Of a DNA stretch of 64,000 nucleotides, positions 11,647 to 54,571 are shown in pieces. The notes under the pieces are model-generated. The model saw nothing but the letters and a program-made list of their open reading frames with translations, ran no database searches and was not told where the DNA came from. Source of the stretch: an uncultured Candidatus Saccharibacteria bacterium (GTDB lineage Bacteria > Patescibacteriota > Minisyncoccia > UBA6257). A program made the translations under genes and the position numbers. Every line of letters begins with the position of its first letter. Position 1 is the first letter of the stretch. The DNA lies in contig CAYZJA010000001.1 in the NCBI GenBank assembly GCA_964479005.1, forward strand, positions 80,642 to 144,641. Reading direction: 5' to 3'.

Positions 11647-11675
11647 TTGACAAAACAAGGAAAAGGATATATAAT
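11647..11675 (+). promoter_or_regulatory. consensus promoter TTGACA-17-TATAAT
   Basis: ttgaca aaacaaggaaaaggata tataat, upstream of the 11777 gene. Confidence 0.6.
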
Positions 11676-11776
11676 CGGGGTAGTTATGGAGAAGATTGAG
11701 TTGCACCTTTACATTTTAAAAGATAAAAAAGATTAAAATATAAGAAAGATTAGAATATAAAAAGGAGGTATTGAAA

Positions 11777-12361
11777 ATGAAAAAGTTATTATTAATACTA
11801 ATGATGATTGTTTTGGTGGCTTTTGCTTTAATGATCCTTGTTTTTCCTGTAGAGAGTATGTATACTGCCCTAGATTCTGAACACGAGATACCTGAAACTA
11901 TTTTGATAAGTAAATTAGGCATAGAGGTATCATACCAATATTGGTATGATACAAAAGAGGGTATAATGAAAGTAGAATTTGTAACCTATATAGATGAGGA
12001 TGATCAAACATCGTGTGCGCAGATTGTTGATGCTGAGGTAGGAGATACCTTCACTGGGATTTCCGGAAGAACCTATGTACTACAAGAACAAACAACGCTT
12101 ACTCAGGCACAAATACAATATCTGACTCATAAGGATATTGTAGTTGTAGGTGAGTGGGTGCCGGTAGATGAAGCTAGTGATAGTGGAGGAAGTGAAGGTA
12201 CTAGTAGTATAGGTATTTCTACTCTGGGGCCATATTATTTTATAGAAGGTGGCGTCACATATAAATATTATATAGGATACATTCCGCCTCCACCTCCTAT
12301 TACTGAAGTTGATGAAGCTGTCGATGGAGGATGGATTGTAACATACTTTCAGCAGAATTAA
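11777..12361 (+). CDS. secreted/membrane-anchored hypothetical protein
   Basis: Signal-like N-terminus KKLLLILMMIVLVAFALMIL. ATG 11777 sits behind a strong SD (aaaggaggt). PPPPP tract near the C-terminus. Confidence 0.6.
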   Translation: MKKLLLILMMIVLVAFALMILVFPVESMYTALDSEHEIPETILISKLGIEVSYQYWYDTKEGIMKVEFVTYIDEDDQTSCAQIVDAEVGDTFTGISGRTYVLQEQTTLTQAQIQYLTHKDIVVVGEWVPVDEASDSGGSEGTSSIGISTLGPYYFIEGGVTYKYYIGYIPPPPPITEVDEAVDGGWIVTYFQQN

Positions 12362-12503
12362 AATGAAGATGAATGAAGATAAAATTGTCAACTTTTCAAT
12401 ATATAAAGAGGCGTTTGGTTTAGAACTGAACGTCTTTTTCATTAACAAGGACTAGCTTTACTAAATTTATGCCTTTGGCATTTGTCCTTATTTGGTGTGG
12501 GGG

Positions 12504-12531
12504 TTGACAAATTATTTTTCTTTGCTATACT
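12504..12531 (+). promoter_or_regulatory. promoter TTGACA-16-TGcTATACT (extended -10)
   Basis: ttgaca aattatttttctttgc tatact. Near-identical context to the 54247 promoter. Confidence 0.6.
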
Positions 12532-12535
12532 AAAG

Positions 12536-12595
12536 ATGCCGTTGTTTTGAGATATGTAGCTTGCTATATATCAATGGGCAGCGGCATTTTTTTTT
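12536..12595 (+). ncRNA. ~60-nt hairpin RNA, family member 1 (unknown function)
   Basis: Outer stem atgccgttg/cagcggcat, inner stem gatatgtag/ctatatatc with loop cttg, then a run of 9 T. Homologous to 54279-54342. Confidence 0.45.
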
Positions 12596-12656
12596 GCGCT
12601 TTTTGATGGTATAATAAAATATAGAAATAATTAAAAAAGATAAAGTATTAATTAAT

Positions 12657-46483: not shown

Positions 46484-46526
46484 ACGTTGCGGGCATCGTA
46501 TAGTGGCAGTACGTAACCTTCCCAAG

Positions 46527-46546
46527 CCCCCACACCAAACGAGTAT
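46527..46546 (+). repeat. left arm of the 20-bp inverted repeat inside the split tRNA
   Basis: cccccacaccaaacgagtat. Its partner is at 46638-46658. Confidence 0.9.
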
Positions 46547-46550
46547 CATT

Positions 46551-46621
46551 GCGAGATTAGTATAGTGGTAGTACATCACCTTCCCAAGGTGAAGGTGCCG
46601 GTCCGATTCCGGTATCTCGCT
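46551..46621 (+). tRNA. tRNA-Gly(CCC), nested within the insert
   Basis: gcgagat ta gtat agtggta gtac a tcacc ttcccaa ggtga aggt gccgg tccgatt ccggt atctcgc t. Complete cloverleaf, but the T-loop has C at position 55. Confidence 0.75.
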
Positions 46622-46637
46622 CCGTTTAAAATTTAAA

Positions 46638-46658
46638 ATACTCGTTGTGGTGTGGGGG
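46638..46658 (+). repeat. right arm of the inverted repeat
   Basis: atactcgttgtggtgtggggg is the reverse complement of the left arm with one extra g. Confidence 0.9.
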
Positions 46659-46778
46659 CAAGGTTAAAGTGTGGGTTCGATTCCCATTGTCCGCTCAAAT
46701 TATTTTTTCGTTACTATCCAAAAAGATTGACGAAGTTTCAAGTGCAATATGGTTTTGTATAATCTTTTTACATTGCTC

Positions 46779-54170: not shown

Positions 54171-54182
54171 ACGATTTTTAAA

Positions 54183-54217
54183 AAGACCTGTTATATTTGA
54201 TATAGCAGGTCTTTTTC
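54183..54217 (+). terminator. strong intrinsic terminator
   Basis: aagacctgttatat/atatagcaggtctt ~15-bp stem followed by ttttt. Confidence 0.7.
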
Positions 54218-54246
54218 TTTATACATAAAGTTATCCACAATGGGAC

Positions 54247-54274
54247 TTGACAAGATTTAAATGTTTGCTATACT
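54247..54274 (+). promoter_or_regulatory. promoter TTGACA-16-TGcTATACT
   Basis: gggacttgaca agatttaaatgtttgc tatact. Paralogous to the promoter at 12504. Confidence 0.6.
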
Positions 54275-54278
54275 ACGG

Positions 54279-54342
54279 ATGCTGTCGTTTGGAAGTATTT
54301 GTTAGCTTGCTAATGGATATGGAAGAGTGGCAGCATTTTTTT
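54279..54342 (+). ncRNA. ~60-nt hairpin RNA, family member 2
   Basis: Outer stem atgctgtc/ggcagcat, apical ttag-cttg-ctaa, then T7. Shares the gatgcYgt...tagcttgcta...ggcagcRgcattttttt framework with 12536-12595. Confidence 0.45.
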
Positions 54343-54392: not shown

Positions 54393-54449
54393 TTGACTTT
54401 ATTAATAAGACGTGATATAGTAAAAATGCTCTTAATTGAGCATTTTTTT
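54393..54449 (+). promoter_or_regulatory. promoter (TTGACT-17-TATAGT) immediately followed by a hairpin + T7
   Basis: ttgact ttattaataagacgtga tatagt, then aatgctc-ttaatt-gagcatt ttttt. Confidence 0.45.
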
Positions 54450-54571
54450 GTACTTTGACATTTAAAATATATAGCCGTAACAGGGAAAATTCTTTGTTAT
54501 TGGAGATAAAAGATAGATTATTAAATGATTTGATTAGTAAAAAATAAATTTAAATAAAGGAGGAAAGAAAG

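Follow-up and report, generated by a model that had tools for sequence, protein, structure and literature searches.

A lineage-restricted family of self-terminating promoter-hairpin units in Paceibacteria that probably encodes sibling small RNAs

Two sites in the 64,000-nucleotide stretch of DNA analysed here (the window) belong to a family of conserved, multi-copy, orientation-independent units in which a consensus promoter runs into a covarying hairpin followed by a U-tract. Each unit (cassette) takes up ~90-110 bp and consists of TTGACA, 16 nt, TG-n-TATAMT, a hairpin with an invariant G(CUUG)C tetraloop, and 6-9 U. An earlier note on this DNA had proposed, from the two window members, a family of ~60-nt hairpin RNAs behind near-identical promoters. 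We found 65 copies in ~20 genomes, conserved and covarying; because further members and conservation in related genomes were both found, the family claim stands. The length of ~60 nt is correct for the two window members (m1 and m2), but most members are shorter (median ~46 nt). In the full-text literature that we searched, no account of an element of this kind in CPR bacteria was found, and the family is previously undescribed.

We read the units, with a probability of roughly 0.6, as autonomous, self-terminating mini-genes: sibling small-RNA genes whose family is specific to one lineage, a clade of Paceibacteria (CPR/Patescibacteria). Three functions had been considered at the outset, namely an sRNA, a decoy and a promoter-proximal attenuator; from the sequences we infer that a small RNA or decoy is the best reading among them.

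The ultra-small CPR/Patescibacteria account for a large share of bacterial diversity and have tiny genomes with few recognisable regulators. To our knowledge, almost nothing has been reported about their non-coding RNAs. A conserved multi-copy unit that is predicted to be strongly transcribed offers a concrete entry to CPR gene regulation, and this one is easily modelled, easily sought in metatranscriptomes and small enough for in vitro tests.

Results

Two family members in the window

The window has a G+C content of 32 %, and its genes lie nearly all on one strand. The two members are made up as follows.

12504-12531, + strand: m1 promoter, class A; 11 of 12 consensus matches, TG present (promoter scan)
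12504-12509, + strand: m1 -35 TTGACA, with ggggg directly 5'
12521-12525, + strand: TTTGC at the end of the m1 spacer; the extended -10 TG is 12523-12524
12526-12531, + strand: m1 -10 TATACT, followed by aaaga before the hairpin
12533-12590, + strand: m1 hairpin RNA; 15-bp outer stem, 3x3 internal loop, 9-bp inner stem
12559-12564, + strand: m1 apex G(CUUG)C, with CUUG at 12560-12563
12587-12595, + strand: m1 nine-T tract, intrinsic-terminator U-tail; its first bases pair with the 5' AAGA
54247-54274, + strand: m2 promoter, class B; 11 of 12 consensus matches, TG present (promoter scan)
54247-54252, + strand: m2 -35 TTGACA, with gggac directly 5'; 16-nt spacer ending in TTTGC
54269-54274, + strand: m2 -10 TATACT
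54278-54337, + strand: m2 hairpin RNA; 13-bp outer stem, internal loop, 11-bp inner stem
54305-54310, + strand: m2 apex G(CUUG)C, with CUUG at 54306-54309
54336-54342, + strand: m2 seven-T tract, terminator U-tail

All features that the note had listed for the two sites were present at 12504-12595 and 54247-54342. The members share one layout, a TTGACA-16 nt-TATACT promoter with extended -10, a hairpin capped by G(CUUG)C, and 7-9 T, and the paired changes that had been pointed out between their outer stems are genuine (C-G versus U-A, among others). Both promoters are predicted from sequence to be of the sigma-70 type with extended -10. As in intrinsic terminators, the basal stems, GCAGCGGCA in m1 and GGCAGCA in m2, are followed by 9 and 7 T, respectively. 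The -10 and the hairpin are five bases apart, and the minimum free energy fold, identical to the centroid, is one hairpin. Since the predicted transcript begins at the hairpin foot, the RNA would be nothing but its own intrinsic terminator (40-65 nt).

The m1 hairpin folded at -28.5 kcal/mol (z = -5.7) and the m2 hairpin at -23.1 kcal/mol (z = -4.9), and in neither case was any of 200 shuffles as good. The reverse strands reached -14.2 (m1) and -5.9 kcal/mol (m2), which was 14-17 kcal/mol poorer than the sense strands. A covariance model, seeded with five sequences (the window members and the first relatives at the locus of the HD-domain gene downstream of m1), recovered m1 (12533-12593, 85.3 bits, E = 7e-23) and m2 (54277-54342, 67.3 bits, E = 3e-17) from the 64-kb window, with no match beyond these two. 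The motif TAGCTTGCTA alone was not rarer than chance (2 matches versus 4.9 expected, one mismatch allowed); the significance lies in the whole architecture, not in TAGCTTGCTA alone. With Rfam 15 at the gathering threshold, the whole window yielded RNase P and three tRNAs only, and no match at m1 or m2.

Four further features lie close to the two members.

12405-12440, + strand: terminator-like hairpin and TTTTT of a 196-aa ORF 5' of m1; -15.6 kcal/mol
12607-12615, + strand: TGGTATAAT, likely extended -10 promoter of the HD-domain gene (start codon 12657)
54180-54217, + strand: terminator-like hairpin and T-run of a 66-aa ORF 5' of m2; -19.4 kcal/mol
54393-54449, + strand: miniature third unit of the same layout; fold -12.7 kcal/mol

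To judge from its context, the hairpin at 12405-12440 may shield m1 from upstream transcription. On the other side of m1, the motif TGGTATAAT recurs at the equivalent place in three relatives (L014, L051 and L073); having this likely promoter of its own, the HD gene is presumably independent of m1. The miniature unit stands between m2 and the gene of a 237-aa protein. It consists of TTGACT-17 nt-TATAGT with TG (54393-54421), five A, UGCUC-UUAAUU-GAGCA and seven U, and both its promoter and its terminator appear in the lists of predicted signals. For the gene downstream of m2, the promoter at 54393-54421 looks like its own, as TGGTATAAT does for the HD gene. The covariance model gave no match at 54393-54449. 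The miniature unit is either a decayed family member or the 5' end of the mRNA of the 237-aa gene.

Family census and phylogenetic range

The closest named homologs of the window HD protein belong to Candidatus Paceibacterota / Parcubacteria. Relatives with an HD protein 76-91 % identical to that of the window carried the element in the corresponding intergenic region. In L014 and L016 the inner stems were shorter than in the window members, and in L012 the copy lay beside the HD gene on the opposite strand. Metagenome contigs that encode proteins identical to those of the window, one of them 551,616 bp long, represent the same strain, and their 100 % identical elements are uninformative.

A scan that covered each bacterial species with one genome used a pattern of RNA features alone (5' arm, GCTTGC, 3' arm, T-run) and gave 63 loci, ~45 of which were of the Paceibacteria type. 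TTGACA-N11-TTTGCTATAMT was located 5' of the hairpin in nearly all of these ~45, and in all of those with enough upstream sequence to judge. The pattern imposed no promoter requirement; the distance between promoter and hairpin was nonetheless fixed. In the other loci (Proteobacteria etc.) the promoter was absent, and these appear to be matches by chance or within coding sequence.

Searching 367 kb of related loci with the covariance model revealed 65 sense-strand copies, corresponding to 61 unique modules of promoter and hairpin. These came from ~20 Paceibacteria-type genomes with at least 3-10 copies per genome, which are lower bounds. The -35 and the TTTGCTATA-T core (TTTGCTATAMT) were invariant in the 61 modules, the T-run was 6-9 nt long, and the predicted RNA measured 39-81 nt (median 46). 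Within the related loci, 61 of the 63 promoters of the family type were followed at once by a hairpin of the family.

HD proteins 88-93 % identical to that of the window were also encoded in several bins labelled Saccharibacteria and in one labelled Methanosarcinales; such labels are probably erroneous or due to contamination. No cassette was present within 20 kb of the HD gene in relatives whose HD protein was 65-69 % identical, which indicates that the family is restricted to a narrow Paceibacteria clade. A pattern scan of viral contigs gave no family copy. The promoter-only pattern used on metagenomes was too generic and served as a control; among the matches listed, one of 123 belonged to the family.

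Promoter classes and a two-hairpin variant

Class A, which includes m1, comprises 39 modules with the conserved spacer AATTATTTTTC. The remaining 22 of the 61 modules, m2 included, form class B and carry AGTTATCC(A/C)CAA 6-9 nt upstream of the -35. In m2 this hallmark is found as follows.

54231-54239, + strand: TTATCCACA, perfect 9-mer match to the DnaA-box consensus, class B hallmark; 7 nt upstream of the m2 -35

TTATCCACA is the DnaA-box consensus. Only two perfect copies of it exist in the window. In the 367 kb of related loci, 22 of the 30 TTATCC[AC]CA sites were located 6-9 nt upstream of a cassette -35. Class-B copies, including m2, may be tied to DnaA via this box.

A variant present in three genomes has an additional 5' hairpin (GGUGUUAUUU-n-UAAGCC-GCAA-GGC-n-AAAUAACACC) between the promoter and the terminal hairpin, which are the same as in the other cassettes. 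The RNA of this two-hairpin variant would be ~85 nt long, and up to about 4-5 copies occur per genome. Permissive Rfam scans of m1 and of the variant produced chance-level matches only (E >= 0.15, far under the gathering scores).

RNA structure and covariation

The structure is selected at the RNA level. In the alignment of 65 sequences (49 distinct rows), which was fitted to the covariance model and thereby favours the structure, 97.2 % of the stem cells form standard pairs. Double-sided changes were found at 12 of the 24 pairs (76 cells), none of 500 shuffles reached any of the observed measures, and sliding the partners by 1-3 columns made pairing drop to 40-69 %. U-G and G-U pairs were common at many positions (e.g. 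40 of 49 at one pair). Since these become mismatches on the other strand, the fold is specific to the transcribed strand; the antisense model scored 25-36 bits versus up to 85 bits in sense. In the m2 ortholog of L020, the differences preserve wobble pairing.

Thirteen copies, whose stems had changed, were missed by the scan pattern. They have clean compensated stems, such as GCUACUGUC/GGCAGUAGC, GCUGUCAUUU/AAAUGACAGC and GCUGUUGAUU/AGUCAACAGC, and all of them keep GCUUGC; the scan pattern and the model in part presuppose loop invariance, and the unbiased sample for it is ~13 copies. The conserved parts are the basal stem (UGCYGUYG / CRRCRGCA) and the tetraloop, and the apical length is free (+0 to ~22 nt). 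The sequence of the basal stem is more strictly conserved than the promoter spacer. Common descent of duplicated cassettes and selection for a strong terminator could explain part of this stem conservation. The alignment contains no conserved unpaired bases outside the CUUG loop, and hence no single-stranded seed for pairing with an mRNA.

Neighbouring genes

Cassettes are dispersed, always intergenic, and independent of the orientation and the promoters of neighbouring genes. The downstream gene was co-oriented in 47 of 58 copies (81 %, versus a background of 84 % for adjacent gene pairs), and a convergent gene lay 3' of 11 of 58 copies (19 %, versus 16 %). Some tail-to-tail positions were kept across species, next to the genes of ArgRS (L028, L072 and L077) and of an ATP-cone protein (L020 and L064). 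Cassettes occurred in tandem in L046 and L017, and those of L012 and L033 pointed away from the HD gene. According to promoter prediction, the downstream genes mostly have their own TTGACA/TATAAT or TGnTATAAT promoter, and a second promoter is located 15-150 nt downstream of most cassettes.

The neighbours are functionally unrelated. They include an HD phosphohydrolase operon with PRPP synthase and nucleoside phosphorylase, L7/L12 with tRNA-Val, Hsp20, small membrane or secreted proteins, PilB, an M16-like peptidase, Fic, GGDEF and PPDK. Syntenic cassette loci were found at the HD operon in 10 genomes and at the 237-aa gene in 3. Downstream of rplL, the genes of Hsp20, a 132-aa protein and the 237-aa protein follow one another in varying orders with a cassette between each, and distinct paralog types are retained at orthologous sites across species. 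The upstream stop codon was <30 nt from the -35 in ~14 of 45 copies. This leaves no space for a separate terminator, and the cassette hairpin must therefore also terminate the upstream gene in these cases.

Discussion

We propose that each cassette is a small-RNA gene in its own right. The units would be transcribed strongly and constitutively, as their consensus promoters suggest. Their product, a hairpin with a 5'-triphosphate, full pairing and an oligo-U tail, would be very stable and would accumulate. It would act in trans on a protein that recognises the CUUG loop and the conserved basal stem, either binding or titrating it. Binding or titration of a protein is likelier than pairing with an mRNA because the RNA has no single-stranded seed. 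Class-B copies would in addition respond to DnaA through TTATCCACA upstream of the -35, and the hairpin would double as a terminator for the upstream gene and, in some cases, for a convergent one. If the link to the DnaA box is true, a minimal cell would possess a small-RNA family, or a set of insulators, coupled to its replication cycle.

A more general proposal, tentative and on balance unlikely, is that Paceibacteria, perhaps low-G+C CPR generally, reserve their strongest promoters, of full consensus, for 40-80-nt transcripts that are hardly more than terminator hairpins, as a distinct regulatory device. Some of these mini-genes would be wired to the replication initiator DnaA by a consensus box at about -45. 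The device might act in two ways: a nuclease-resistant, blunt 5'-triphosphate hairpin could flood the cell and titrate a protein that binds RNA 3' ends or double-stranded RNA, or the cassettes could serve as polymerase-loading or insulating stations beside the promoters of stress and salvage genes.

A separate observation concerns low-G+C metagenome contigs with the same promoter type. Among the matches listed, 22 of 75 had an unrelated hairpin and T-tract that ended within 95 nt; the corresponding figure for random positions is 2.5 %, a difference that favours the broader habit.

It is also possible, at rather long odds, that the cassette works in cis and that the RNA is a by-product. As an insulator, its terminator and a promoter permanently occupied by polymerase would block upstream or convergent read-through. 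As a hand-off device, a polymerase that terminates after 40-60 nt would keep sigma, slide to the adjacent promoter and boost or buffer the neighbour; post-termination sliding and re-initiation are known from work on the E. coli polymerase. The second promoters 15-150 nt beyond most cassettes would suit such a device, and at the HD gene the T-tract of the cassette stands exactly at the -35 / UP-element position. Moreover, the cassette is often the sole possible terminator of the upstream gene and adjoins convergent genes, the copy adjacent to the HD gene is found in both orientations (L012 and L033), and the free length of the apical hairpin would be expected if termination alone mattered. A pure terminator, however, needs neither the invariant G(CUUG)C nor a strictly conserved basal stem, and the tandem cassettes (L046 and L017) as well as the multi-copy two-hairpin variant point to the RNA as the payload. 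Even with the RNA as a mere by-product, the cassettes would represent an unusual solution to gene insulation in very compact genomes.

The promoter-proximal attenuator, the third of the functions considered at the outset, is disfavoured by our results. Such an antitermination switch, which we regard as improbable, would rely on a trans-acting factor that permits read-through, either by binding the nascent 5' arm or by loading at the promoter, for which lambda Q at PR'-tR' is a precedent. The co-orientation of 47 of 58 copies with the next gene could be taken to support it, but the value of 81 % equals the background of 84 %. The conserved synteny at the HD operon (10 genomes) and at the 237-aa gene (3 genomes) would agree with a switch as well, identical hairpins within a genome would suit one shared regulator, and the promoter offers a conserved box, TTATCCACA, and a conserved spacer. 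Yet eleven copies point at the 3' end of a gene transcribed towards them, some at positions conserved across species, the copies of L012 and L033 are oriented away from the HD gene, downstream genes have promoters of their own, copies stand in tandem, and an extra promoter and hairpin intervene between m2 and its gene. With the predicted start at the first stem bases, there is no room for a cis-acting antiterminator fold or a sensor. We found neither the alternative fold nor the upstream sensing domain of a leader or riboswitch, and a promoterless co-oriented gene does not always follow 3'.

We give little credence to a mobile or repeated DNA element of the REP or MITE kind, or to a recombination site, in which the hairpin would act as DNA and the promoter would be incidental. 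Dispersed intergenic copies would be expected of such an element. Synteny with relatives breaks exactly at the m1 -35 (12504) and inside the m2 hairpin (~54290), gene order varies 3' of rplL with cassettes between the genes, and assembly contigs end at a cassette. On the other hand, the spacers drift but the -35, -10 and T-tract do not vary, which argues for selection on transcription signals and against a mobile element, and abundant G-U pairs tie the fold to the transcribed strand. Copies number 3-10 per genome (lower bounds) and none was found in viral contigs; no target duplications or terminal inverted repeats beyond the hairpin were seen next to copies, and no transposase or integrase is adjacent to them. 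Distinct paralog types are moreover held at orthologous sites across species. The synteny comparison with relatives provided no pair of filled and empty sites for inspection of target duplications.

A chance resemblance between ordinary promoters and ordinary terminators, without any family, might be suspected in AT-rich genomes, which are rich in promoter- and hairpin-like strings and in which TAGCTTGCTA alone is not over-represented, but it is refuted by E values of 1e-17 to 1e-23 for the sole matches in 64 kb and by 65 covarying copies.

Comparison with known systems

Several known identities were rejected. A type I toxin-antitoxin system (Sib/Ibs-like) does not fit: by eye, we found only strings of 4-13 codons that are unconserved, non-hydrophobic and without a Shine-Dalgarno sequence. 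Coding potential was dismissed too, as the 5' AUG/GUG strings of 4-14 codons are unconserved and the start site is probably inside the codon. Integron attC sites contain RYYYAAC ... GTTRRRY in this order, have extrahelical bases and lie near an integron integrase. In the family this order is reversed, with GTT in the 5' arm and AAC in the 3' arm, and the flanking genes include no integrase. SRP RNA, 6S RNA, Y RNA and tRNA-like RNA were discarded because of absent motif resemblance, the misfit of multiple copies and the lack of an Rfam match. Finally, an Hsp20 RNA thermometer was rejected, Hsp20 being just one among many unrelated neighbours.

With intrinsic (bidirectional) terminators the family shares a G+C-rich basal stem, a stable tetraloop, a U-tract and, paired with the latter, an A-rich 5' flank, and, like these and REP palindromes, it is intergenic and sometimes common to convergent genes. 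Unlike ordinary terminators, it has a dedicated consensus promoter 5 nt upstream, and its members are related in sequence and share a loop that does not vary. REP elements occur in far higher numbers and go with one particular family of tyrosine transposases (RAYTs).

Sibling small-RNA families are known from Listeria (LhrC1-5), streptococci (csRNAs) and Vibrio (Qrr1-5), with RNAs of 90-150 nt that expose single-stranded seeds. As in these, the cassettes are paralogous copies, some in tandem, each with its own promoter and intrinsic terminator. Similarly to the csRNAs and Qrr RNAs, where CiaR or LuxO is the regulator, class B has a box (TTATCCACA) just upstream of the promoter. In contrast to all three, the family RNA would be fully paired from its first nucleotide with only the 4-nt loop exposed, and a conserved seed was not found.

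Type I 3'UTR small RNAs such as DapZ and MicL have their own promoter and a seed between promoter and terminator. About 30 % of the cassettes resemble them in that the promoter lies just upstream of a terminator shared with the preceding gene, but only 5 nt separate the -10 from the family hairpin, and there is no seed.

In lambda ('6S RNA') and Stx phages (StxS), the strong constitutive promoter PR' followed by the terminator tR' gives rise to an abundant short RNA that can itself be regulatory (PMC7547250). The cassettes likewise combine a strong promoter, here a predicted one, with an intrinsic terminator that follows almost at once. Unlike the lambdoid unit, a single copy before the late operon that is governed by Q and yields ~200 nt, they occur in 3-10 chromosomal copies with products of 40-65 nt, 19 % of the copies have no gene to read into, and no phage association was found in viral contigs.

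As its transcript is essentially only a terminator hairpin, the family is unlike all of the systems compared. In their logic, its nearest analogues would be the sibling small-RNA families, the short transcript of lambdoid PR'-tR' and the 3'UTR small RNAs that have their own promoter.

Cassette edges as apparent rearrangement sites

Comparison with related genomes revealed that homology stops exactly at the edges of the cassettes, which consist of a consensus promoter and a self-terminating hairpin with T-tract (window 11647 versus 12504; L036:2272-2282; window ~54290). The unit carrying the 196-aa gene 5' of member 1, the cassette at 12504-12595, is present in the window (11647-12503) and absent from the related locus L036, and the junction falls at the shared string TTGACAAA. 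Small genes 3' of rplL, encoding Hsp20, a 132-aa protein and a 237-aa protein, differ in order from species to species, with a cassette between each. Taken together, the breaks in homology at cassette edges and the shuffled gene order 3' of rplL make the cassettes and promoters look like rearrangement hot spots.

Two features lie just upstream of member 1:

12469-12481, + strand: mini-hairpin ATGCC-TTT-GGCAT, then T-rich sequence, 23 nt 5' of the promoter
12491-12503: motif TGGTGTGGGGG / CCCCCACACCA, immediately 5' of the -35

The mini-hairpin has the basal-stem sequence of the cassette family with nothing between the two arms, and may therefore be the relic of a collapsed cassette copy. The TGGTGTGGGGG / CCCCCACACCA motif also occurs upstream of the L027 cassette (four occurrences in both orientations, L027:1-145); it may belong to another family of repeats or be bound by a protein.

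Hairpin variants and unrelated promoter-hairpin units

One variant of the family has two hairpins: between the usual promoter and the usual terminal hairpin lies an additional 5' hairpin, whose tetraloop is GCAA, and the RNA is then ~85 nt long. This variant was found at L026:3579-3691, L027, L029, L033, L057, L058 (twice) and L067, with up to four copies per genome, and had no match in Rfam.

Promoter-hairpin units were also detected outside the family. Among the metagenome contigs listed by the promoter-pattern scan (L080-L199), 75 low-G+C contigs carried the same promoter type (TTGACA-N11-TTTGCTATAMT), and in 22 of these an unrelated hairpin with T-tract ended at most 95 nt from the -10 (e.g. 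L129, L181, L111, L163, L086, L125, L148), compared with 2.5% at random positions. This excess suggests that tiny promoter-hairpin RNAs may be a wider habit than the cassette family. Several of these contigs have a leader in common, of the type AGTTTTACAGAAC.

Genome labels and an apparent nested tRNA gene

The HD-domain protein encoded 3' of member 1 is 88-93% identical to its counterparts in bins labelled 'Candidatus Saccharibacteria' and in one labelled 'Methanosarcinales archaeon' (L020-L022, L028, L035-L037, L054, L058, L059, L069, L072-L078). Its nearest named homologs are labelled Paceibacterota. The Saccharibacteria and Methanosarcinales bins are probably mislabelled or contaminated.

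Elsewhere in the window, one tRNA gene looks to be nested within another:

46486-46700, + strand: apparent tRNA gene, split near the anticodon loop by an insert edged by inverted repeats CCCCCACACCAAACGAG and CTCGTTGTGGTGTGGGGG
46551-46623: annotated tRNA-Gly(CCC), within the insert

Candidate leader motifs of protein-coding genes

Two motifs recur upstream of genes:

852, 3500, 8201 and 53923, + strand (also L020, L035, L058, L059, L062, L202): AAAGGTCGRAAAT, ~20-60 nt 5' of start codons without a canonical AGGAGG
54454-54466 (also L022, L034, L053, L061, L062, L064, L067, L078): (G)WACYTTGAAAAWTTAAA, in 5'UTRs downstream of cassettes

AAAGGTCGRAAAT may serve as a leader motif or as an alternative site for ribosome binding. 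(G)WACYTTGAAAAWTTAAA is found a short distance 3' of gene promoters and 5' of AGGAGG, and resembles the boxA elements in the leaders of rRNA operons of Gram-positive bacteria. If it is indeed boxA-like, protein-coding genes here may be under Nus-factor antitermination.
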